A stretch of DNA of 64,000 bases from Thermomicrobiaceae bacterium (GTDB taxonomy: Bacteria; Chloroflexota; Chloroflexia; Thermomicrobiales; Thermomicrobiaceae), in the NCBI GenBank assembly GCA_035532355.1, contig DATKRJ010000215.1, positions 7,247 through 71,246 on the forward strand, read 5' to 3'. Made by a program: the position numbers and the translations under genes. Of this stretch, positions 41,353 through 62,651 are shown piece after piece. How positions within the stretch are numbered: position 1 is the first letter of the stretch; every line of letters starts with the position of its first letter. The notes beneath the pieces are model-generated. The model was not told the origin of the DNA and did no database searches. It saw nothing but the letters and a program-made list of their open reading frames with translations.

Positions 41353-42057
41353 TCAGAGGCCGAGATACGCGGTACGGATCTCGGGCCGCTCGAGGAGCTC
41401 TGAGGCGGGCCCTGAGAGCACGACCCGCCCGGTGTCGAGGATGTAGCCGCGCTGCGCGTGCTCGAGCGCGATCTGCACGTCCTGCTCGACGAGCAGAATG
41501 GTGTTCCCCGCGGCGTGAACCTGCGCCAGCGCGTCCATCAACGCGTCCACGGCGACCGGGGCCAGGCCCAGCGAGAGCTCGTCGATCATCAGCAGCCGGG
41601 GGCGCCCCATCAGCCCGCGCGCGATCGCGCACATCTGCTGCTCACCGCCGCTGAGCTTGCCCGCTAGCGAGCTTACGCGGCGGCGCAGCGCTGGGAAGAG
41701 CTCGAGCATGCGCTCCAGGTCCTCCTGGATACCGTCGCTCCCCTGGCGGGCGTAGGCACCAAGCAGCAGGTTCTCCCGCACGGTGAGACCCTGAAAGAGA
41801 TGGCGGCCCTGCGGTACGTGGACGATGCCGAGCCGGACTAGCCGGTCAGACCCCAGCGCCGTCACGTCCCGCCCGTCGAGCTCGAAGCGCCCGGCCTTAA
41901 TCTCGACCAGCCCGGACAGCGCCCCCAGGAGCGTCGATTTGCCGGCGCCGTTGGAGCCGACGATCGCGACCATCTCGCCGGTCTCGACCTCGATGTTGAC
42001 GTCCCACAGCACCTGCACGTCGCGATAGCCGGCGCCGAGGTCCACGGTCCTCAGCAT
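41353..42057 (-). CDS. livF: Branched-chain amino acid (HAAT family) ABC transporter ATP-binding protein LivF-like
   Basis: GSNGAGKSTLL, LSGGEQQMCAIARGL and LLMIDELSLGLAP. The start overlaps the livG stop by 1 nt (TAATG). Confidence 0.85.
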   Translation of the reverse strand: MLRTVDLGAGYRDVQVLWDVNIEVETGEMVAIVGSNGAGKSTLLGALSGLVEIKAGRFELDGRDVTALGSDRLVRLGIVHVPQGRHLFQGLTVRENLLLGAYARQGSDGIQEDLERMLELFPALRRRVSSLAGKLSGGEQQMCAIARGLMGRPRLLMIDELSLGLAPVAVDALMDALAQVHAAGNTILLVEQDVQIALEHAQRGYILDTGRVVLSGPASELLERPEIRTAYLGL

Positions 42058-42836
42058 TACGCCCCCTCCGCCCCCAGCTCCCGCGCCGCCCAGCGGGCTC
42101 CCAGATACGCTTTGATCACCCCCGGGTTCGCCGACACGTCCTGGGGCGTGCCCTCGGCGATCACCCGGCCCGCGTCCAGCACCACGATGCGGTCGCACAG
42201 CCGCATGATGGCCCGCATCACGTGTTCGATGACCAGGATCGTCACCCCGCCACGGTTGATTCGCCTCACCAGATCGATCGCTTCATCGATCTCGGTCGCG
42301 TGCAGGCCGGCCATGACCTCATCGAGCAAGAGGACGAGGGGATCGGCGGCGATCGCCTTGGCAAGCTCGAGCCGCTTGCGGTCCTGTAGCGTGAGCGCGG
42401 AGGACGATCGATCGGCCAGCGCGGCCAGATCCACCTGCGCCAGCACCTCGTCGGCGCGTGCCCGCGCGGCCGCCACGCTGTGACGCTGGCCGCGCCCAAA
42501 GAGGGCACCAATCGCGACGTTCTCACGCACGGACATGCCCGCGAACGGACGGACCACCTGGAACGTGCGCGCCATACCGGCCCGACCTATCCGATGCGGC
42601 GCCCAGCCGGTAACGTCGACGCCGTTGAACTCGACGCGCCCCGCGTCCGGCTCCGCTACCCCGGTCAGGAGGTTGACCAGCGTCGTCTTGCCCGCACCGT
42701 TCGGGCCGATCAGGCCGAGGATCTCGCCCTCGCGCAGTTCGAAGCTGACATTGTCGGTCGCGGCCAACGCGCCGAAACTCTTGCGTAGGTGCGCCACGCG
42801 CAGAATGGGGTCGCCGATGCGGCGCTGCGCCTCCAT
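42057..42836 (-). CDS. livG: HAAT family ABC transporter ATP-binding protein LivG-like
   Basis: GPNGAGKTTLVNLLTG, LLLDEVMAGL and the C-terminal LivG-type extension. Confidence 0.85.
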   Translation of the reverse strand: MEAQRRIGDPILRVAHLRKSFGALAATDNVSFELREGEILGLIGPNGAGKTTLVNLLTGVAEPDAGRVEFNGVDVTGWAPHRIGRAGMARTFQVVRPFAGMSVRENVAIGALFGRGQRHSVAAARARADEVLAQVDLAALADRSSSALTLQDRKRLELAKAIAADPLVLLLDEVMAGLHATEIDEAIDLVRRINRGGVTILVIEHVMRAIMRLCDRIVVLDAGRVIAEGTPQDVSANPGVIKAYLGARWAARELGAEGA

Positions 42837-49511: not shown

Positions 49512-51131
49512 ATGCTCCCGACGCGGATCACTCGGTTCCTGGTTGGGTCGCTCCTTCTGCTCGCGCTCATGCCGGCGTTGCCGGCCGCTGCGCAGACACC
49601 CGCCGTCACCACGATCCACCAGTTCGGCACACCCGGCAACGACGATGCGCGCCCCGTCGCGGTCGATGGCGACGGCTACGTCTACGTGGCCGGCTACACC
49701 CCCGGGGTTCTCCGCGGCCAGACGAGCGCCGGTGGTAACGACGCCCTTGTCCGCCAGTACCTCCCGAACGGCTCGGAAGGCTGGACCCGCCAGTTCGGCG
49801 GCTCCGACGATGATTTCGCCTACGGCCTGGCGGTCGACTCGAACGGCAACGTTTAGGTGGCGGGCTACACTCAGGGCGTCTTGCCGGGCCAGACCAGCGC
49901 CGGTTCCGCCGACGCCTTCGTGCGCCAGTACACACGCAGCGGTGTTGAAGGCTGGACTCATCAATTCGGCTCGTCGAGCATCGAATATGCCTACGCCGTT
50001 GCCACCGACGAGGACGGCCACGTCGACGTGGCGGGCCAGACGCTCGGCACCCTGCCCGGTCAGACGAGTGCCGGTGGCTACGACAACTTCTTGCGGCAAT
50101 ACGACGGCAACGGTAACGAGGTCTGGACCCGCCAGTTCGGGGGAACCTCCAGCGAGGCGGTTAGTGGCGTGGCGGTGGACGCTGCCGGCGACATCTACCT
50201 TGCGGGCCTGACGTATGGCACGCTGCCGGGCCAGACCAGCGCGGGAGACAAGGACGGGTATCTGGCCGTCCTGTCCCAGACCGAGACCGACGAAACCGCA
50301 CCGGTGACCACCGCCTCGGTCACGCCGGAGCCCAACGTCAACGGCTGGAACAACAGCCCGGTCACGGTCACCCTTCAATCCAGTGACGAACCGGGTGGCG
50401 CAGGCGTCGAGGCGACCTACTCCATCCTCGACGGCAATCCGCGGCAGTCCTACACCGGGCCTATCGCCGTCACCCTCGAGGGCGTTCACACCCTCCAGTA
50501 CTGGAGCGTTGACGCCGCCGAAAACGTGGAGACTGCCCACTCGCTGACACTGCGGATCGACACCAAGGCCCCTGAGGTGGCTCTTGCCTTCGATCCGGCG
50601 AGTCGAGACCTCTCCGTGACCGCCACCGACGACGGCTCGGGCATCCCCTCGACCGTGCTTGCCAGTCGTGCCGCCGCCGCCTGGACGGCTCAGGACAGCC
50701 TTCCCGCCATCACGACCACCCCGTCGGTGTCCTCCGGGGGTCTGTTCAACGCCGAGCTGCGCACCTACGTCCTGACGGATCGGGCCGGCAACACGCTGAC
50801 CGTCGTCGTCAAGGTGCAGAAGATCGGCGGTCCGGCCTTTGGCACGCTCAACGCGCACGTGGTGAGCGTGCGTTACGGCAGCGGCCCCCCCTATATCCCC
50901 ACCGGACAGCTGCAGGCACAGTGGATCGCCGCGGGTTCGGCCAACCCCCTGATCCTGACCCAGCACTTTCTGTCCGGCAGTGGGATGTCCCGGCAGGAGC
51001 GGACCACCCTCTATACCGGCAGCAGCACCACGGTCTTCGACCTGGTCCACGGCGGCAGCCAGCGACTGAGCGGGATGGCCCTGCCGCAGCTCCACAGCAG
51101 CCAGGGCACGCTGCACATCGACCTGCCGTAG
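49512..51131 (+). pseudogene. Secreted beta-propeller (SBBP-type) repeat protein with C-terminal Ig/OmpL47-like domains, interrupted by one in-frame TAG at 49854-49856
   Basis: The track ORFs 49512-49856 and 49857-51131 share one frame. Signal peptide LLLLALMPALPAAAQ. Repeats G.G.VYVAGYT.G.LPGQTSAG..DAFVRQY. The TAG sits where the other repeats have Tyr or Asp. Confidence 0.7.
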
Positions 51132-51153
51132 TCGCGCCCACGATTGCTCGTAG

Positions 51154-51180
51154 CCGGCCGCCCTCCTGCCGGGCGGCCGG
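51154..51180 (+). terminator. Hairpin terminator after the propeller gene
   Basis: ccggccgccc / gggcggccgg 10-bp stem with a 7-nt loop. The T-tract is weak (ttcgcctttc). Confidence 0.45.
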
Positions 51181-51360
51181 TTCGCCTTTCCGGCCGACCC
51201 GCCCAGCCGCCTCGTCAAACGGCGACCCAACCTCTCGTAGTTGTGCTACGCCAGGACCTTGCTGGGTCCTCTCGATCCCGATTCAGCCATCTGGCTGCCG
51301 CTTCTGTTCCGGGACAAGGATTTGGCGCCCTCCGAGCGCCGGCCCACGTCTCGCCGGGCG

Positions 51361-51390
51361 TTGACATTCCTCGACCGATACCTCTAGAAT
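51361..51390 (+). promoter_or_regulatory. Near-consensus sigma70 promoter of the exporter/GNAT operon
   Basis: TTGACA (51361-51366), 18-nt spacer, TAGAAT (51385-51390). Confidence 0.6.
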
Positions 51391-51396
51391 GGCCGG

Positions 51397-51633
51397 GTCG
51401 GCTTCGCATGGAGCACGTCGCGGCGCAGGCCCTTGGGCATGGGAAGGTACGCTAGATGAGCGCGAACCTCGAATTCCACAGCCGGCTGATGGACCGCTCC
51501 CGTGGTGGCGGTTCCATCGTGCGGCCTGTGGGGCGGAGCTGCCTGCCGGCGGGATGACGTGACGCGCTGACACCAGCTGAGTCAATCCCGCCGCGGGCCG
51601 AGCAACAAAATCTCGCCCGCGGTTTTTGTTTGT
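51397..51633 (+). promoter_or_regulatory. Structured 5' leader (attenuator or riboswitch candidate) ending in an intrinsic terminator
   Basis: Hairpin at 51488-51518. CGGCGGGA (51547-51554) can pair with TCCCGCCG (51586-51593), which overlaps the terminator 5' arm. Two abutting uORFs lie at 51408-51455 and 51456-51557. The first structural gene starts 37 nt after the T-tract. Confidence 0.5.
51591..51633 (+). terminator. Rho-independent terminator inside the leader
   Basis: Stem ccgcgggc(c)gag / ctcgcccgcgg with one bulge, loop caacaaaat, then tttttgtttgt. Confidence 0.7.
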
Positions 51634-51669
51634 CCAGCCAACGGGCGAGCCGTGCAGAGAGGCGAACGC

Positions 51670-52539
51670 ATGCGAACCGGTGGTGGCCAGCCAATTCTTG
51701 CGACCGGAGGTCCCAGGCAGGTCGACGCGGTCGCCGTCGAGCACCTCTCCAAGCGCTTCGTCCGGCGCTCGCTGATCCGGCATCGTCCGATCCAGACGGT
51801 CCACGCGCTCGACGACGTGAGCTTCAGCGTCCGTCAGCAGGAGATCTTCGGCGTCCTCGGGGTGAACGGCTCTGGCAAGTCGACGCTCATCCGAGTTCTT
51901 TCGACGCTGCTGATCCCGGATGCGGGGTCCGTCCGCGTCTTTGGGTACGACATCGGTCGCGACGAGGCGGCGGTGAAGCGCCTGATCAACCGCGTTTCGG
52001 TGGAGGCGTCGTTCTTCAAGAAGCTCTCGGCGATGGAGAACCTGCTCTACGCGGTCCGCCTCTACGGCCGCGGTGGGGCCGGCCTGCGCCGGGAAATCGA
52101 GCAAATTCTGGTGGCGCTGGGGCTGGAGCGCCCCCGCATCGGCCAGCCGCTCGAGCAGCTTTCACGTGGGATGCAGCAGAAGGTGGCGATCGCGCGCGCC
52201 TTCCTGACGTCTCCGGTGCTCCTCCTGCTCGACGAGCCGACTACGGGACTCGACCCGCGCTCGAAGAAGGACGTGCAGGAGTTCGTCATCCGCCTGCGCG
52301 ACGAGCACGACGCCACCATCATCCTGTGCAGCCACGACATGGACGAGGCCGAGCGGCTGTGCGACCGGATCGCCGTGCTCGACGGGGGTCGACTGGTGGC
52401 AATCGACACGCCGACCGGCCTGAGGAGACGGGCCGCCGCGGGGGCCGGCCTACCCGACCTGACCCTCGAGCAGACGTTCATTCAGCTCACGGGTCGGCCG
52501 CCCGACGCGGTCGACGTCGAGGACGGGCAGGTCGCCTGA
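51670..52539 (+). CDS. ABC transporter ATP-binding protein (ABC-2/DrrA-like exporter type)
   Basis: Walker A GVNGSGKST, signature LSRGMQQK and Walker B LLLLDEPTTGLDP. Confidence 0.85.
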   Translation: MRTGGGQPILATGGPRQVDAVAVEHLSKRFVRRSLIRHRPIQTVHALDDVSFSVRQQEIFGVLGVNGSGKSTLIRVLSTLLIPDAGSVRVFGYDIGRDEAAVKRLINRVSVEASFFKKLSAMENLLYAVRLYGRGGAGLRREIEQILVALGLERPRIGQPLEQLSRGMQQKVAIARAFLTSPVLLLLDEPTTGLDPRSKKDVQEFVIRLRDEHDATIILCSHDMDEAERLCDRIAVLDGGRLVAIDTPTGLRRRAAAGAGLPDLTLEQTFIQLTGRPPDAVDVEDGQVA

Positions 52540-52569
52540 CGGCCTGGCGCCGGCGCGAATGGGGGATCG

Positions 52570-53409
52570 ATGGCCGATTCATGGAGTCACTCGTCTCCGG
52601 GAGCCGGGGGACTGTGGCGCGAGGTCAGGGCGTCCTACGCCTTCGTCGAGCGCAACGTGTTCCTGGTCCGCCGTTACTGGGGCTGGGAGATTGCGTTTCT
52701 GGTCTACAACGTCACGTCTTCGCTAAGCGTCATGTACATCGGCAAGGCCCAGCAGGTCCAGGGAGACCAGTTGATCCTGTACCTCGGGATCGGCACGCTC
52801 GTGTGGTCCTACCTGCGCTCGGTGTTCGCGAACATCAGCGAGATGATCTCCTGGGAGCGCTGGGAGGGGACCATCGAGTACACGATGATGGCGCCGGTCT
52901 CACGCCTGACGCACATGCTCGGCGTGTCGCTGTTCAGTGTGGCCTACGGCATCGTTCGCACGGCCGTGCTGCTGGGCGCGCTGGCGCTGTTCTTCGACGT
53001 CAGCCTGGGGCACGCCAACTTCGTCGGAGCGCTGGTCGTCATCCTCATCGGCAGCCTGTCCTTCATCGGCATCGGGATCATGGCGGCCGTCCTGCCGCTC
53101 CTCTTCACCGAGCGGGGTGAGGAGATGACGTTCATCATCTCGTCGGTCCTGCTGCTCGTCTCGGGCGTCTACTACCCGATCTCGGTGCTGCCGGGCTGGA
53201 TGCAGACGGTTGCCCGCATCTCGCCGGCCACCTACGTCCTCGACGGCATGCGCGCCACCGTGCTCGACGGAGCGGGCACCGGGCAGGTCCTCCGCTACCT
53301 GGTGCCGATGGCGCTCATCGGCGCGATCACCATTCCGCTCGGCATGGCCGTCTTCTCGTCGGTCGAGCGCTACGCCAAGCGAACTGGACGCCTGAAGCGC
53401 AGCGGCTAG
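52570..53409 (+). CDS. ABC-2 type transporter permease
   Basis: About 6 TM helices. N-terminal FVERNVFLVRRYWGWEI typical of ABC-2 permeases. Follows the ATPase by 30 nt. Confidence 0.75.
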   Translation: MADSWSHSSPGAGGLWREVRASYAFVERNVFLVRRYWGWEIAFLVYNVTSSLSVMYIGKAQQVQGDQLILYLGIGTLVWSYLRSVFANISEMISWERWEGTIEYTMMAPVSRLTHMLGVSLFSVAYGIVRTAVLLGALALFFDVSLGHANFVGALVVILIGSLSFIGIGIMAAVLPLLFTERGEEMTFIISSVLLLVSGVYYPISVLPGWMQTVARISPATYVLDGMRATVLDGAGTGQVLRYLVPMALIGAITIPLGMAVFSSVERYAKRTGRLKRSG

Positions 53410-53451
53410 GCCGCGCGACGACGCGTTTCGAGACGTGTGAAAGGAGTACCC

Positions 53452-53967
53452 GTGCGAGCCGTCTACCTGACCGGTCCGACCGTCTACCTGCGCGCCCTCG
53501 CCGAGAGCGACGCGGAGTCGGCCGCGGCCTGGTTCGACAGCCTCTTCCCGATCAACGCCTCCCGCGCGGCCGAGTTTCTCCGTGAGGAGCACCAGGAGCC
53601 CTGGTCCAGGCGCCGGACACTGGCCATCGCGCGCAACGACGGCGGCGAGGTCGTCGGCGGAGCCCGCCTGCGCATCGATGGCCGCTCGGCTCAGCTCGGA
53701 TTCCACATGGCGCCGTGGGCGCCCGACGCGGACGACCTGCGCGGCGAGGCGCTGGGCCTGCTGGTGCCGTGGCTGCGCGGTGAATTGGAGTGCCTGGTCG
53801 TCAGCACCGAGATTCCGGCCGACGAGGCCGCGACGCTGCGGGCAGCGGAAGCCGCGGGGATGCGCTGCCGCGTGCGCCTGCGCGAGCACGTGGCGCGCGG
53901 CGGCCAGCGGGTCGACCTGCTCATCTACCAGTCCGTCGACCCCACGCTGGAGGGCGCCGATGCGTAA
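53452..53967 (+). CDS. GNAT family (RimJ/RimL-like) acetyltransferase paralogue 1, with a degenerate acetyl-CoA motif
   Basis: AAGGAG lies 5 nt before the GTG. The N-terminus VYLRALAESDAESAAAWF parallels the next two genes. The R-G-x-G-x-G position reads DADDLRGEA. Confidence 0.65.
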   Translation: MRAVYLTGPTVYLRALAESDAESAAAWFDSLFPINASRAAEFLREEHQEPWSRRRTLAIARNDGGEVVGGARLRIDGRSAQLGFHMAPWAPDADDLRGEALGLLVPWLRGELECLVVSTEIPADEAATLRAAEAAGMRCRVRLREHVARGGQRVDLLIYQSVDPTLEGADA

Positions 53968-54568
53968 CCAGATCCTTGCCGGCGAGCGGCTGTACCTCCG
54001 CCCCCTCGAGACGTCCGACGCCGCCTCGCTTGCGGCGTTCTCCGCCGCCGAGACGGAAAGCTTCTTCGACGAAGGGCGCGTGCCGCACAGCCCGATCGCC
54101 CTCGAGCACTGGATCACGGAGCTCCACCGGCGGCAGCCGCCACGTGCGATCCAGCTCGCCGTCTGTCTGCGCGAGGACGACCAGTTCATCGGCATGCTCG
54201 GCGTCTCGAGGCTGGACTGGGTGAACCGGACCGGCGAGAGCGAGAGCTACCTGGGCGACGTCGCCGCGCGCGGCAAGGGCTACGGCCCGGAGGCAAAGTG
54301 GCTGCTGCTGGAGTACATCTTCGACCATCTGCAGCTCCACGTCATCCGGTCGTTCGTCTGGCAGCCGAACTGGCGCTCGGCCGCCGCGGTGCGCCACCAG
54401 GGCTACCGGGAGGCCGGCCGGCTCCAGACAACCGCCACGAAGCACGGGGTCTACCAGGGGGAGTTCGTCTTCGACCTGCTGCGCGACGAGTACCTGGCCG
54501 GTCGCGAGCGCTGGCGCGCCGAGCAGGCGGGGCGGAAGCAGCGCGTGACCGGCGCCATCGGTGCGTGA
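53960..54568 (+). CDS. GNAT family (RimJ/RimL-like) N-acetyltransferase paralogue 2
   Basis: LYLRPLETSDAASLAAF and motif A ARGKGYGPEA. Overlaps paralogue 1 by 8 nt. Confidence 0.8.
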   Translation: MRNQILAGERLYLRPLETSDAASLAAFSAAETESFFDEGRVPHSPIALEHWITELHRRQPPRAIQLAVCLREDDQFIGMLGVSRLDWVNRTGESESYLGDVAARGKGYGPEAKWLLLEYIFDHLQLHVIRSFVWQPNWRSAAAVRHQGYREAGRLQTTATKHGVYQGEFVFDLLRDEYLAGRERWRAEQAGRKQRVTGAIGA

Positions 54569-54572
54569 GCCA

Positions 54573-55154
54573 ATGGCTCGCGGCCCGCGGGTGTATCTGA
54601 GGCCGCTCGAGGAGTCCGACGCCGCCGCACTGGCCGGCTTCACCGCGGACGAGACCGAGACGTTCTTTCTCGGCCGCGGTCGCATCCCGGCTAGCCCGCT
54701 TGCATTCGCCGCGTGGATCCGCAACATCGGCGCGCGGCAGCCGCCTCAGACGCTGGAGCTGGCCGTCTGCCGCGTCACCGATGACCACCTGCTGGGCTAC
54801 GTCGGCGTCTGGGAACTGGACTGGGTACACGGCACGGGCGAGGTCGACATCGCGCTGTGGCCCGCGTCGGAGCGCGGCCGGGGATACGGCACTGAGGCGC
54901 TGCGACTGCTGCTCGACCTCACGTTCGGCACGTATCAGCTGCGCGCCCTGCGTGCCTTCGTCTGGAGCGCGAACGCCCGCTCGGCGGCTGTCCTCACGCG
55001 CGTCGGGTTCCGACCGGCCGGGCGTCTCCGCACCGCGGTGGTCAAGAGCGGGTTTCATCTCGACCAGCGGGCCTTCGACATGACGGACCGCGACTGGTTG
55101 AGCCCGGTTCGAGCCGGGAACACCAAGATCTGCAGCGGCACGTATCAAGTTTAG
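54573..55154 (+). CDS. GNAT family (RimJ/RimL-like) N-acetyltransferase paralogue 3
   Basis: VYLRPLEESDAAALAGF and motif A ERGRGYGTEA. Starts 5 nt after paralogue 2. Confidence 0.8.
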   Translation: MARGPRVYLRPLEESDAAALAGFTADETETFFLGRGRIPASPLAFAAWIRNIGARQPPQTLELAVCRVTDDHLLGYVGVWELDWVHGTGEVDIALWPASERGRGYGTEALRLLLDLTFGTYQLRALRAFVWSANARSAAVLTRVGFRPAGRLRTAVVKSGFHLDQRAFDMTDRDWLSPVRAGNTKICSGTYQV

Positions 55155-55199
55155 TTCGCCGGTCCCCATAAGAGCGTCGGCGATCTGGCATACTTCTCG

Positions 55200-55937
55200 A
55201 TGTCCCGTTCATGTTCCGGGACCAGAACGCGAGGAACCGTGCTTCTGCTCTCCCTGTTCTTCCTCCTCGGCGTGGCGGCGCTGAGTGTCACCGCCGCGGT
55301 TGGCACAAACCTGGCCGCGCTCAGCGCGCTCCTCGCCGCGCCCGGTCAGTTCGGGCTGCTCTTGCGTGACCGGCACGCCCGCCGCAACCTCGCCCTGGGT
55401 CACGCGACGGTCAACATCTTGCGGCAGCGCTCCGGGCACTCGGGTCTGGTCGCGCTGGCGAGCCCCGCGGGGTTCGTCGTCCGGGGCGGAGCCTCTCCGG
55501 CCATGGTCGCGGACGCGGCGTCCGAGGCGCTGGCTCGACTGCGCGCCGGAGAACGAACGCTGGCGGTCGATCCGCGCAGCGCCGCCGCCCTGCTGGCGAC
55601 GGACATGGGGCTGGCTGCTGCCGTCGTTGCGGTGCTGCTCCTCACCGATACCTCCGGTCTGGCCGCGGCAATCGCGGGCCTCGCGCTGGTGGCGCTCGTC
55701 GGTCCGCGCCTCAGCTCCGTCCTGCAGCGACACCTCACGACCGACGCGCACCTGGGTTCGCTGGCCATCAGGGGGATCCAAATCGAGGCCCCGTCCGGAA
55801 TCCGCGGTCTGCTCACGCTGGTGATGCTGGGACCGGTGCTCGTTCAAACGTCCGACGTACAAACCGCGGCGCCGGTCGACCGGCAGACTCCACCGATGCG
55901 GGAGATGATCGCGGTCGAGAACTTCACGGTGCGCTAA
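55200..55937 (+). CDS. Hypothetical Ala/Leu-rich membrane protein
   Basis: 245-aa ORF with at least three hydrophobic segments (LLLSLFFLLGVAALSV, LAAAVVAVLLL, LAAAIAGLALVALV). No family was recognised. Same strand, 45 nt after GNAT 3. Confidence 0.5.
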   Translation: MSRSCSGTRTRGTVLLLSLFFLLGVAALSVTAAVGTNLAALSALLAAPGQFGLLLRDRHARRNLALGHATVNILRQRSGHSGLVALASPAGFVVRGGASPAMVADAASEALARLRAGERTLAVDPRSAAALLATDMGLAAAVVAVLLLTDTSGLAAAIAGLALVALVGPRLSSVLQRHLTTDAHLGSLAIRGIQIEAPSGIRGLLTLVMLGPVLVQTSDVQTAAPVDRQTPPMREMIAVENFTVR

Positions 55938-56288
55938 CGGCCCTTCGCCAGTCGGAGGGCGGCCAGCAGACACGTTCGACGGAGATTCCCTTGTGGGGTG
56001 TAAGTCAGGTGATGGTTGTCGCCCCCGATTCGATGGGCGACGGGTCCGCGAGGTGTGGGTGCGGAGGAGTGCCCCCGGCGGACCTGTACGCCGGCCCGGC
56101 GGCAAGCCAGATCACACCAACGATGTCCGGGCTAGCGACGGGAGCGCGGGCGAGCGACCCGAACCGGGGCGGGCATCGGACTGGGACTCAGAAGCTGCCA
56201 GAGTCGGTTCCATCCATCACGGATAGCGACCAGTAGCGTGTCGACCATGGCCGAGTCTTCCTCCTTCGGCTCTTGACCGCCGGGGCGG

Positions 56289-56317
56289 TTGTCCGACCCC
56301 GCCAACGCTGCTATAAC
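56289..56317 (+). promoter_or_regulatory. Sigma70-like promoter (extended -10) upstream of the PFK-family gene
   Basis: TTGTCC (56289-56294), 17-nt spacer, TGcTATAAC (the -10 hexamer is at 56312-56317). Confidence 0.4.
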
Positions 56318-56353
56318 GCATCGGCCGTGCCGCCCAGGCTTGCCTGATTCGAT

Positions 56354-57631
56354 GTGGACCGCGCGGTGGTCGGGCGCAAGGCACCTCGGACAGCACGCCG
56401 CGCACATACCGGGGGGTCACGCTTGGGGTCCTGGGACAACCTGCTCGTGGCGCAGTCCGGCGGTGCCACGGCCGTCATCAACGCCAGCCTGGTAGGCGCC
56501 GTCGAGACCGCGCGAGCCAGTGCGCGCTTCGGCGCGATCATCGGCGCGCGAAACGGCATCGAGGGAATCCTGGGCGCGGAGTTCGTCGACCTGGGGCGGC
56601 AGCCGCCCGACGTGCTGATGGCGGTGGCCCGAACCCCATCCGCCGCGCTGGGCACGACGCGGCGCCGGCTCGACGACGAGACCGCGGCCCTGGCGGTCCG
56701 GAACCTCGCGCGGCGCGAGGTGCATCACGTCGCCTACATCGGGGGTAACGACTCCGCCGACACGGCCAGCCGTCTGGCCCGTGCCGCCGTCGACGCGCGC
56801 TACGAACTCGCGGTGGTCGGCATCCCCAAGACTATCGACAATGACCTGCCCGACACCGACCACTGCCCGGGCTACGGATCCATCGCGCGATTCATGGCGC
56901 TCGCCACCCGCGACGCCGGGCGCGACACCGAGGCCACGGCCGGCCTCTACCCCATCAAGCTGATCGAGGTGATGGGCCGGAACGCGGGATGGGTCGCAGC
57001 GGCGACCGCGCTCGGCCAGGAGCGCGACATCGACTCGCCGCAGCTCATCTTCTTCCCGGAGCGTCCGGCACGCGATCTGGCGACCTTTCTGGACGAGATA
57101 GGCGCGGCCCACCGTCGCTATGGGCACGTGGTCGCCATCGTGCCGGAGACGGCGCGAGACGCCTCCGGAGACCCATTGACCGGTGCGGAGGCGTACTGGA
57201 CCGATCCGTTCGGCCATCGCTACTACCAGAGCCCGGGTCCAATGCTGGCGCGGGCCATTGAGGAGAGGCTCGGACTGCGCGCCCGCTACGACAAGCCCGG
57301 CACGATCGCGCGGATGTTTGGCGCCTGCCTATCGGAGACCGACCTGAGCGAAGCCCACATGGTCGGTGCCGCCGCGGTACAACTCCTGCTCACCGGTGTC
57401 TCCGGCGTGATGGTAACGCTGGTGCGCGCCGGCGACGCGCCCTATCGCTGCGCGACCGGGACGACGCCGTTGGCCAGCGTGGCCAATCGGGAGCGGCATC
57501 TGCCCGATGAGTTCATCACCGACGGCGGCCGTGGGATAACCGACGCGTTCCGCGCCTACGCCGTGCCGCTGATCGGCGGCCCGCTCCCTCTATACGGCCG
57601 GCTGCTCGATCTCGACGTGCCGGGTGCGTAG
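56354..57631 (+). CDS. 6-phosphofructokinase family protein, probably PPi-dependent type
   Basis: QSGGATAVINAS, IGGNDSADTA, GIPKTIDNDL and MGRNAGW. Asp occupies the position equivalent to Gly104 of the E. coli enzyme (GGDGS versus GGNDS). The start is uncertain; a TTG at 56423 is an alternative. Confidence 0.75.
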   Translation: MDRAVVGRKAPRTARRAHTGGSRLGSWDNLLVAQSGGATAVINASLVGAVETARASARFGAIIGARNGIEGILGAEFVDLGRQPPDVLMAVARTPSAALGTTRRRLDDETAALAVRNLARREVHHVAYIGGNDSADTASRLARAAVDARYELAVVGIPKTIDNDLPDTDHCPGYGSIARFMALATRDAGRDTEATAGLYPIKLIEVMGRNAGWVAAATALGQERDIDSPQLIFFPERPARDLATFLDEIGAAHRRYGHVVAIVPETARDASGDPLTGAEAYWTDPFGHRYYQSPGPMLARAIEERLGLRARYDKPGTIARMFGACLSETDLSEAHMVGAAAVQLLLTGVSGVMVTLVRAGDAPYRCATGTTPLASVANRERHLPDEFITDGGRGITDAFRAYAVPLIGGPLPLYGRLLDLDVPGA

Positions 57632-62216: not shown

Positions 62217-62651
62217 TCAGTCCAGCATCTTGACGAAGCGCAGGCCGGTGTCGACGTAGCCGAGGCGCCGGTAGAAGGCGTGAGCGCCGGCGCGGTGCCG
62301 CGCCGTGGTGAGCATCACCCCGTGGCAGCCCCGCTCCCGTGCCAGTTCCTCGACCGCGCGCACCATCACGGCCCCGATGCCGCGCCCGCGATGCGCGTCG
62401 TCGACCACCAGCGCGGCGAGACGGCACACCGGATCGTCGTGCTCCAGCAGCGGGATTACCTCGGCCGCGACCAACCCCACCACCACCCCGCCGGGGTCGA
62501 CGGCGGCCAGCACGCGCCAGTCTGCCGACCCGCCAAGCACCTGCAGGCGGCGTTCCGCCTGCCGCGCGGTCGTCGGGTAGCCGAGTTGCTCGAGGAGCCC
62601 CGCGACGGCTTCGGCGTCGGCGGCGGCTGCGTCGCGCACCGTGAGGTCCAC
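62217..62651 (-). CDS. GNAT family N-acetyltransferase
   Basis: Motif A HRGRGIGAVMVRAVEELARERG and C-terminal FYRRLGY. The start is uncertain between 62651 and 62729. Confidence 0.75.
   Translation of the reverse strand: MDLTVRDAAAADAEAVAGLLEQLGYPTTARQAERRLQVLGGSADWRVLAAVDPGGVVVGLVAAEVIPLLEHDDPVCRLAALVVDDAHRGRGIGAVMVRAVEELARERGCHGVMLTTARHRAGAHAFYRRLGYVDTGLRFVKMLD

Follow-up and report, generated by a model that had tools for sequence, protein, structure and literature searches.

A putative leader-peptide attenuator ahead of a conserved ABC-2 exporter operon in Chloroflexota

A stretch of 64,000 nucleotides (nt) from a Thermomicrobiaceae bacterium (contig DATKRJ010000215.1, phylum Chloroflexota; hereafter the window) was analyzed in this study, with a focus on the cassette at positions 51361–55937, in which an ATP-binding cassette (ABC) exporter of the ABC-2 type is followed by three acetyltransferase-like genes (GNAT1, GNAT2, and GNAT3) and a gene for a membrane protein. 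The cassette begins with a leader that encodes a short peptide and ends in an intrinsic terminator, and leaders of the same family precede relatives of the exporter genes in several classes of Chloroflexota. With moderate confidence, we interpret this leader as a ribosome-mediated attenuator that would induce the exporter and the acetyltransferases under translation stress. The finding is of more interest for the leader than for the list of genes behind it.

Anatomy and conservation of the leader

A sequence-only reading of the window had placed six genes behind a promoter and a structured leader, and the list of open reading frames (ORFs) together with Pfam searches bore out all of these positions. 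The leader exists as described and is more than a structured RNA, as it contains a Shine–Dalgarno-preceded ORF of 33 codons. Its features are as follows:

51361–51390, + strand: sigma-70-type promoter (TTGACA at 51361–51366, 18-nt spacer, TAGAAT at 51385–51390)
51441–51447, + strand: Shine–Dalgarno-like GGGAAGG, 8 nt ahead of the leader ORF start
51456–51557, + strand: leader ORF of 33 codons, MSANLEFHSRLMDRSRGGGSIVRPVGRSCLPAG and then a stop codon
51525–51631, + strand: match to covariance model R1 (63.5 bits, E 4.7e-15)
51531–51548, + strand: codons of the C-terminal peptide motif, G-R-S-C-L-P in the window, a stretch aligned by the covariance model
51547–51555, + strand: putative antiterminator 5′ strand CGGCGGGAU, comprising the end of the leader ORF and the first base of its stop codon, paired with 51585–51593 by RNAfold
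51585–51593, + strand: putative antiterminator 3′ strand AUCCCGCCG, overlapping the first 3 nt of the terminator 5′ arm
51591–51632, + strand: intrinsic terminator with the stem CCGCGGGC(C)GAG / CUCGCCCGCGG and a 9-nt loop, then UUUUUGUUUG

The promoter matches the consensus at 11 of 12 positions and is the sole such site in positions 51000–56500 (5.5 kb), where 0.2 are expected; across 11 aligned leaders, neither TTGACA nor the A..AT positions of the −10 box vary. From promoter to terminator the leader is approximately 235 nt long. The terminator hairpin of the window (CCGCGGGCCGAG-CAACAAAAT-CTCGCCCGCGG, then TTTTTGTTTG) lies approximately 40 nt 5′ of the ATPase start and has a predicted free energy of −18.7 to −20.7 kcal/mol. 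A simple terminator scanner with a loop limit of 8 nt missed this hairpin, the loop of which is 9 nt long.

The same architecture recurs in related loci (designated L001, L002, and so on), which were fetched for their relatives of the exporter genes. A strong hairpin followed by a T-run is present no more than 450 nt upstream of the ATPase gene in 103 of the 123 loci with enough upstream sequence, most of the 103 having the terminator 5′ arm CCGYGGGC, and changes in the stem are compensatory (CCGCGGG/CCCGCGG, CCGTGGG/CCCACGG, and CCACGGG/CCCGTGG). Nearly every related locus contains a Shine–Dalgarno-preceded candidate leader ORF of 21–51 amino acids, which ends 19–40 nt before the terminator hairpin. 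The covariance model R1, built from 20 Thermomicrobiales leaders with the window excluded, found a single significant match in the 64 kb of the window and matched at leaders only across 1.55 Mb of loci. Upstream of the ATPase genes of three Thermomicrobiales loci (L094, L095, and L105), no leader hairpin was found. In two loci that lack an adjacent ATPase gene, the leader directly precedes the permease gene (L037:7744–7830 and L059:7819–7904), and the element therefore tracks the operon and not a particular first gene.

Promoter, leader ORF, and intrinsic terminator are thus all present and kept in relatives, in agreement with the attenuator-type leader that the sequence-only reading had proposed. 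An Rfam scan of positions 51000–56500 at E ≤ 1 returned no match to any riboswitch or known leader family, and targeted literature searches on leader peptides of ABC-2 transporters in Chloroflexi yielded nothing relevant. The earlier remark that the cassette matches no described system holds within these searches, and the leader-peptide transcription attenuator is apparently undescribed so far.

Two side observations concern the leader region. A stem-loop just 3′ of the predicted transcription start (approximately 51399–51417 in the window; columns ~40–65 of alignment A2) is present in all aligned leaders, and its stem sequence varies (GACCC/GGGTC, GTTCCG/CGGAC, GCCCCG/CGGGC, and GGCCCC/GGGGGC). 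One 6.5-kb contig carries two inverted copies of leader, ATPase, and permease that face apart (L057:915–5580), which could be a duplication or an assembly artefact.

The leader peptides share the C-terminal consensus G/C-R-S-[VLA]-P, followed by 2–11 residues, whereas they differ in length and in their remaining sequence. The window has R-S-C-L-P at this place, with one extra Cys codon relative to the consensus, and a few Anaerolineae leaders read R-S-A-P-P-G. A search for the motif returned 74 unique matches, almost all of them leaders, in which Arg is written with all six codons (CGG 16, CGT 10, AGA 10, CGC 9, CGA 6, and AGG 4), Ser with both the AGY and the TCN family (AGT 37, TCT 11, TCC 3, AGC 2, and TCA 1), and Pro is kept in 70 of 74. 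Because Arg uses six codons and Ser both codon families, the peptide itself is under selection. When the motif was combined with a terminator, a scan of 1.61 Mb gave 64 matches on the operon strand, each located at most 1.4 kb upstream of an ATPase or permease gene, and one match on the other strand, which comes from the inverted second operon copy in L057. Upstream of Chloroflexales-type operons the peptide motif was not found. A riboswitch was considered and rejected, since the conserved core is read in one frame and Arg and Ser are kept while their codon families switch. As a separate observation, in two distant classes a second, semi-conserved stretch, R-L-R-x-x-A-P-[FIM]-G, precedes the C-terminal motif by 10–15 residues (L079, L081, L087, L103, L111, L014, L016, L099, L106, and L115).

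The motif codons are complementary to the terminator 5′ arm. For leaders cut before the 3′ arm, RNAalifold predicted the helix UCUGCC(Y):GGGCAGA together with an inner helix GGGA:UUCC, and single-sequence folds at the same point placed the whole 5′ arm in a long-range helix (L019, L025, L009, L088, and L050); in L160 the antiterminator helix is the minimum-free-energy structure even at full length. The two pairing strands read as follows in three groups:

Thermomicrobiales: motif codons AGU-CUG-CC, arm GGCAGA
Anaerolineae: motif codons AKU-GCG-CC, arm GGCGCA
Limnocylindria: motif codons AGA-UCU-G...CCC, arm GGG...CAGAUC

Double changes preserve the pairing between classes, with CUG:CAG switching to GCG:CGC. 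In an alignment whose terminator arms were anchored by hand by the analyst for the covariation counts, 86.7% of cells are paired (80.6% in shuffles) and 19 cells carry double changes (8.2 in shuffles), with none of 500 shuffles reaching the observed value in either count, and slid registers gave 37–58% paired. The pattern suggests selection on the peptide and on RNA pairing within the same nucleotides, that is, dual coding.

Peptide-export operons commonly hold a terminator between a small structural gene and the transporter genes. By that comparison, the conserved Shine–Dalgarno-preceded ORF, with its conservation at the peptide level, might encode a functional micro-protein (a transporter subunit or substrate), and the hairpin might be a leaky terminator that sets stoichiometry, with no attenuation involved. 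We regard this as highly unlikely, as only about five residues are conserved while the remainder and the length vary freely, changes in the motif codons go along with changes in the terminator arm, the spacing from stop codon to terminator is held to 19–40 nt, and the arm sequence is kept across the phylum, which a plain terminator would not need.

The exporter, the acetyltransferases, and their neighbours

Behind the leader, the cassette contains the following genes:

51670–52539, + strand: ABC ATPase (alternative GTG start at 51652; Pfam ABC_tran, 1e-28), with a DrrA/ABCA-type nucleotide-binding domain
52570–53409, + strand: ABC-2 (type V) permease (Pfam ABC2_membrane, 1e-15; motif WERWEGTIEYTMMAP), strongly conserved across Chloroflexota
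53452–53967, + strand: GNAT1, a GNAT-fold paralogue without the R/Q-x-x-G-x-G/A acetyl-CoA motif (Acetyltransf_3 1.7e-3, a sub-gathering score)
53960–54568, + strand: GNAT2 (Acetyltransf_3 1e-21), motif RGKGYG intact, its start overlapping the GNAT1 end by 8 nt
54573–55154, + strand: GNAT3 (Acetyltransf_3 8e-25), motif RGRGYG intact
55239–55937, + strand: DUF6391 membrane protein (alternative ATG at 55200; PF19928, 8.7e-27)

The ATPase–permease pair is found throughout Chloroflexota, with at least 598 contigs in a one-genome-per-species collection encoding a relative. The fetched loci, with permease identities of 52–89%, come from Thermomicrobiales, Anaerolineae, Chloroflexales, Limnocylindria, and further classes, as well as from some bins of Bipolaricaulota and Fraserbacteria, and the ATPase gene almost always adjoins the permease gene. 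The pair is a core exporter conserved across the phylum Chloroflexota. An ATPase subunit with ABC_tran and a separate permease with ABC2_membrane identify it as an ABC-2 (type V) exporter. Both subunits remain under the curated NCBIfam cutoffs for the DrrAB daunorubicin-resistance subfamily (ATPase against the drrA subfamily TIGR01188, 1e-66 and 225 bits vs. a cutoff of 312; permease against TIGR01247, 4e-15 and 56 bits vs. a cutoff of 223) and are thus not assigned to it. Among solved structures, the ATPase best matches the nucleotide-binding domains of ABCA7, ABCA4, and ABCA1. The permease sequence and a profile built from its alignment gave no informative match against solved-structure sequences. 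Its AlphaFold2 model (predicted local distance difference test, pLDDT, 75) was matched by Foldseek to Wzm, KpsM, TarG, and ABCG with TM-scores of 0.58–0.65 at 11–16% sequence identity; as judged from the model, these matches represent the generic type V exporter fold.

Kinship of this sort raises the question of a housekeeping envelope exporter, in which the cargo would be a glycolipid, glycopolymer, or lipid, the GNATs would acetylate amino-sugar precursors, and the leader would tune expression to the growth or translation rate. The unusual conservation of the permease throughout the phylum, its best folds (Wzm, KpsM, and TarG), the closeness of the ATPase to ABCA lipid-transporter domains, a weak PseH match of GNAT2, and the many loci that have the ABC pair without a GNAT all speak for such a role. 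However, neither the window nor the annotated relatives have genes for a glycosyltransferase, a polymerase, or sugar nucleotides next to the exporter, the ATPase (295 amino acids) has no Wzt-like carbohydrate-binding extension, and the fold likeness is generic to type V exporters. The other recurring cargo is ribosome-related (RsgA and RIO1 kinase), and the tandem GNAT arrays of zero to five copies resemble diversifying detoxification genes. We therefore consider an envelope exporter unlikely.

The sequence-only reading had counted three paralogous acetyltransferases, a count that GNAT1 does not support. GNAT2 and GNAT3 are 47–48% identical to each other, score 78 and 89 bits against Acetyltransf_3, and have intact acetyl-CoA motifs, as expected of the GNAT superfamily. 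GNAT1 is 20–22% identical to either of them, scores 19.5 bits against a cutoff of 25.4, lacks the motif, and has no NCBIfam match. In place of the acetyl-CoA motif, GNAT1 and three orthologues that are 42–59% identical (L088:6944–7462, L008:8857–9402, and L012:6504–7028) share D-A-D-x-x-R/K-x-E-A. On sequence grounds, GNAT1 is probably a conserved pseudo-GNAT, either a pseudo-enzyme or a partner subunit. Since its stop overlaps the GNAT2 start, GNAT1 may be a partner subunit, and a pseudo-GNAT/GNAT heterodimer with GNAT2 is possible. It is also observed that GNAT1 has been kept despite its motif loss and in translational coupling to GNAT2.

None of the three GNATs has a RimJ, RimL, or RimI match in NCBIfam at E ≤ 0.01, and RimJ/RimL orthology was rejected on this basis; the possibility that they are clear orthologues of ribosomal-protein acetyltransferases, which the sequence-only reading had named as a ground for refutation, was thus not borne out. 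The cutoffs for AAC(6′) and SpeG are not reached either (22 vs. 250 bits and 27 [26.8] vs. 218 bits, respectively), the weak NCBIfam matches being to SpeG (3.9e-6 and 3.7e-3) and, for GNAT2, to PseH (5.6e-6). The nearest solved structures of GNAT2 and GNAT3 are uncharacterised GNATs, YdaF (1nsl), SpeG, and AAC(6′)-Ib, with E-values of 1e-5 to 1e-11.

The genes that accompany the exporter behind the leader vary among lineages:

Thermomicrobiales: two to three Acetyltransf_3 GNATs after the permease
Anaerolineae: a 310-amino-acid Acetyltransf_1 GNAT between ATPase and permease
L030: a double GNAT between leader and ATPase
Chloroflexales/Herpetosiphonaceae: RsgA and one to five GNATs between ATPase and permease
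Limnocylindria-type loci: RsgA 0.1–3 kb downstream of the permease
L076:5918–6937: a RIO1-domain kinase (PF01163, 8e-37) between leader and ATPase gene

RsgA is a 30S-maturation GTPase, and in archaea and eukaryotes RIO kinases take part in the biogenesis of the small subunit. RsgA stands beside the ABC-2 operon in two distant clades, inside the operon in Chloroflexales/Herpetosiphonaceae and just downstream of it in Limnocylindria-type loci (L046:4174–5109; L048, L031, L051, and L055; L056, L063, L065, L071–L073, L075, L080, L082, L086, L087, and L160). GNATs occur in or beside the same ABC-2 operon in at least four arrangements across Chloroflexota, and the pairing of exporter and acetyltransferase that the earlier reading had emphasized is thus no coincidence.

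A chance neighbourhood, in which the GNATs would be housekeeping RimJ/RimL-type acetyltransferases, DUF6391 would be unrelated, and neither would share a function with the exporter, is the least probable of the alternatives considered here. Acetyltransf_3 is indeed the RimJ/RimL family in Pfam, the small-subunit factors RsgA and RIO1 kinase adjoin the operon in other lineages, DUF6391 is found in an unrelated context elsewhere, and GNATs are missing from most loci. Against this, the NCBIfam searches found no RimJ, RimL, or RimI match, and in three lineages the GNATs are inserted within the operon, with the ATPase gene on one side and the permease gene on the other. Acetyltransf_3, Acetyltransf_1, and double GNATs were recruited independently to the same operon, and the GNAT array of the window begins 42 nt after the permease with genes that overlap or abut one another.

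The order ATPase, permease, GNATs, DUF6391, PFK, and dynamin-like GTPase recurs in L088, L089, and L102 (permease identity 83–89%), L001 and L004 have partial versions of it, and PFK is found 3′ of the permease also in more distant Thermomicrobiales. The permease of the window has a counterpart with 100% identity among the annotated proteins of a Thermomicrobiaceae metagenome-assembled genome. GC content is 0.65–0.73 within the cassette and 0.66–0.73 outside. A horizontally acquired accessory island was rejected because there is no shift in base composition and synteny is conserved (L001, L004, L088, L089, and L102). The suggestion that the cassette is an accessory insert in a core region is thus contradicted by the recurring gene order, the flat GC level, and the phylum-wide ATPase–permease pair; the best explanation is that the operon resides on the chromosome of a Thermomicrobiaceae bacterium and has been inherited vertically.

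The last gene of the cassette had been noted as an orphan membrane ORF of 245 amino acids that could not be placed in any family. The ORF exists, but it belongs to Pfam DUF6391 (94.4 bits vs. a cutoff of 33, profile positions 2–134 of 134), and its homologues are 232–236 amino acids long. A literature search on DUF6391 returned no papers. In Caldilineales, DUF6391 lies between glycogen phosphorylase (glgP) and holA (DNA polymerase III delta), with no ABC or GNAT genes near (L005/L006:7418–11580), and in L094 (6678–8783) a beta-lactamase-like gene, recognized by eye from an S-x-x-K motif, replaces the GNATs between permease and DUF6391. Because of this Caldilineales context and the intervening L094 gene, DUF6391 was rejected as an obligate partner, and its membership in the functional unit, or on the same transcript, is doubtful. 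Two side observations may be added. In L095 and L105 the gap between permease and DUF6391 is of a size similar to that in L094. The proximity of DUF6391 to glycogen phosphorylase in Caldilineales and to a PFK-family gene in the window may hint at a link to carbohydrate metabolism.

Both flanks agree with the earlier description. Downstream, a PFK-family gene (Pfam) occupies 56354–57631. Upstream, an SBBP beta-propeller gene with a signal peptide (49512–51131, + strand) is broken by an in-frame TAG at 49854–49856 (GTT TAG GTG) into ORFs of 114 and 424 amino acids, and could be a pseudogene or an assembly error. Elsewhere in the window, tblastn located two more tandem ABC ATPase domains (41419–42797, − strand) and a further Acetyltransf_1-like GNAT (approximately 62256–62489, − strand).

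Proposed mechanism and its alternatives

In the proposed mechanism, a strong promoter would drive a leader of approximately 235 nt that encodes a short peptide, and the last codons of the leader ORF (G/C-R-S-[VLA]-P) would double as the 5′ strand of an antiterminator by pairing with the terminator arm CCGYGGGC. A ribosome that reaches the end of the ORF would cover this strand, the terminator would form, and transcription would stop; a pause at R-x-x-P may hold the ribosome on the antiterminator strand until RNA polymerase completes the terminator. Ribosomes lagging or stalled further upstream, as under translation inhibitors or transcription–translation uncoupling, would instead permit the antiterminator and read-through into the exporter and GNAT genes. 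The operon of the window would supply an ABC-2 exporter, one pseudo-GNAT, and two Acetyltransf_3 GNATs predicted to be active, and these products may export and N-acetylate an amine-containing toxic compound, with a ribosome-targeting antibiotic as the likeliest candidate. An exporter, diversifying acetyltransferases, and 30S factors together make up a cargo that fits a translation-stress response. We infer the direction of regulation and the inducing signal by analogy with whiB7 and bmrB–bmrCD, and likewise infer the pausing role of the motif and the substrate.

Several points weigh against this reading. On the RNA side, the whole-leader fold reaches a z-score of only −2.0, and the covariation, counted in a hand-anchored alignment, consists mostly of two or three clade-level switches with few independent events. 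The number of arm bases paired upstream (9.5 vs. 7.7 in mononucleotide shuffles) is non-discriminating in a GC-rich RNA. The leader of the window is itself atypical, with an extra Cys codon and an A-to-C change in the arm; four of the seven antiterminator pairs of the family form, and its alternative helix (51547–55 with 51585–93) overlaps the terminator by only 3 nt. On the protein side, permease identities of 52–89% across the phylum fit a housekeeping substrate better than a drug pump, and the closest folds of the permease model are those of glycan and glycolipid exporters. The sequence likeness of the GNATs to any characterised enzyme is weak, and most loci have the ABC pair only, with a GNAT in 19 of the 84 loci in which both flanks are covered.

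TnaC senses tryptophan and SpeFL ornithine as nascent peptides in the ribosome, and blt–bltD of Bacillus subtilis pairs an efflux pump with a spermidine acetyltransferase. A metabolite-sensing arrest peptide may be imagined along these lines, in which G-R-S-X-P would bind an endogenous polyamine or amino-acid derivative in the ribosome and the operon would export and acetylate that metabolite, in a SpeG/BltD-like homeostasis. Leaders of 21–51 amino acids would lie almost wholly within the exit tunnel, and they carry both the C-terminal motif, conserved at the peptide level, and the semi-conserved R-L-R..A-P-[FIM]-G. Spermidine/diamine N-acetyltransferases are also among the nearest structures of GNAT2 and GNAT3 (E 1e-5 to 1e-7), next to the NCBIfam SpeG matches, but the SpeG score of 26.8 bits is far from 218 and does not exceed the matches to AAC(6′) or to GNATs that are uncharacterised. 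The operon has no linked gene of polyamine or amino-acid metabolism. Moreover, a ribosome stalled at the motif would cover the antiterminator strand and favor termination. The ligand would then repress its own export, and such a circuit makes no sense for detoxification. We judge an arrest peptide of this kind to be quite improbable.

Beyond the attenuator of this operon, we tentatively raise the possibility, in which we place rather low confidence, that leaders with G/C-R-S-[VLA]-P form a new, phylum-wide class of regulatory nascent peptides, dual-coded with an antiterminator strand, that sense the state of the ribosome or a ribosome-bound compound, and that they head an ancient translation-stress or intrinsic-resistance regulon of exporter, GNATs, and, in some lineages, RsgA or RIO1. 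An attenuator kept across several classes of Chloroflexota would be a clean natural system for the study of dual coding and nascent-peptide control. It provides a handle on a still uncharacterised transporter that ranks among the most conserved in a major environmental phylum, and it points to GNAT arrays, RsgA, and RIO1 kinase as functional partners of the exporter. If the inducing signal is inhibition of translation, the operon would give soil and hot-spring bacteria an intrinsic resistance module, which bears on the origin of resistance determinants that combine efflux and acetylation.

Comparison with known systems

Attenuators that act through a leader peptide have been well established in Proteobacteria, Firmicutes, and Actinobacteria but are, to our knowledge, little documented for Chloroflexota. 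A system comparable to the present one is bmrB–bmrCD of B. subtilis, in which a leader peptide controls a multidrug ABC exporter by ribosome-mediated transcription attenuation and is induced by protein-synthesis antibiotics (PMC4191407). Both systems have a small ORF right before the ABC exporter genes and alternative stem-loops that include an intrinsic terminator, and the position of the ribosome, which sets bmrCD expression, is proposed to do so for the Chloroflexota leader. BmrCD, however, is a type IV (ABCB-like) heterodimer, in contrast to the ABC-2 (type V) exporter studied here, and the BmrB terminator lies within the ORF, whereas that of the Chloroflexota leaders lies 19–40 nt past the stop codon. 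The two leaders have no sequence relationship; the Chloroflexota leader has a phylum-wide motif that would double as an antiterminator strand, and its operon includes putatively co-transcribed GNAT genes.

In the whiB7 leader of mycobacteria, efficient translation of the upstream ORF leads to a Rho-independent terminator and poor translation to an antiterminator and read-through, and both the GNAT Eis and the efflux pump Tap are members of the whiB7 regulon (PMC10274678). The output of whiB7 (an efflux pump, a GNAT, and ribosome-related factors) resembles the ABC-2 exporter, GNATs, and RsgA/RIO1 found in Chloroflexota. Different from the Chloroflexota attenuator, which stands directly on the effector operon, whiB7 encodes a transcription factor that activates a dispersed regulon. 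The two belong to different phyla and have no sequence similarity, and induction by antibiotics, which has been demonstrated for whiB7, is proposed for the Chloroflexota leader.

SecM and the RAPP arrest peptides also have a conserved Arg three residues before a Pro near the C-terminus (R-A-G-P in SecM, R-S-X-P here; PMC10951299). As with RAPP/RAPG peptides, conservation is at the peptide level, and some Anaerolineae leaders read R-S-A-P-P-G (PMC10951299, PMC10951233, PMC10987492). Those peptides, however, precede Sec/YidC components, have the length needed to engage the export machinery, and in most cases act on translation (PMC10951299, PMC10951233, PMC10987492), whereas the Chloroflexota leaders of 21–51 amino acids precede an ABC-2 exporter, are coupled to a terminator, and differ in the middle residues of the motif. 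The R-S-C-L-P of the window is one residue longer than the SecM-type R-x-x-P spacing.

Among exporters, DrrAB (TIGR01188 and TIGR01247) gives the best NCBIfam matches for both subunits and has the same organization of a separate ATPase gene and a gene for a six-helix ABC2_membrane permease. Unlike DrrAB, the Chloroflexota exporter has no adjacent antibiotic biosynthesis cluster, and its conservation is phylum-wide and not tied to producer strains. GNAT2 and GNAT3 share Acetyltransf_3 membership with RimJ/RimL and related enzymes, have an intact R-G-x-G-Y-G, and show weak similarity to the structures of YdaF, SpeG, and AAC(6′)-Ib; they differ from these enzymes in having no equivalog-level match and in forming tandem arrays (zero to five copies) inside an exporter operon, in which GNAT1 has lost the cofactor motif. 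Taken together, ribosome-mediated attenuation of an ABC exporter is of a known kind, whereas the leader family, its dual-coded motif, its phylum-wide spread, and its GNAT/RsgA/RIO1 cargo appear to be undescribed.

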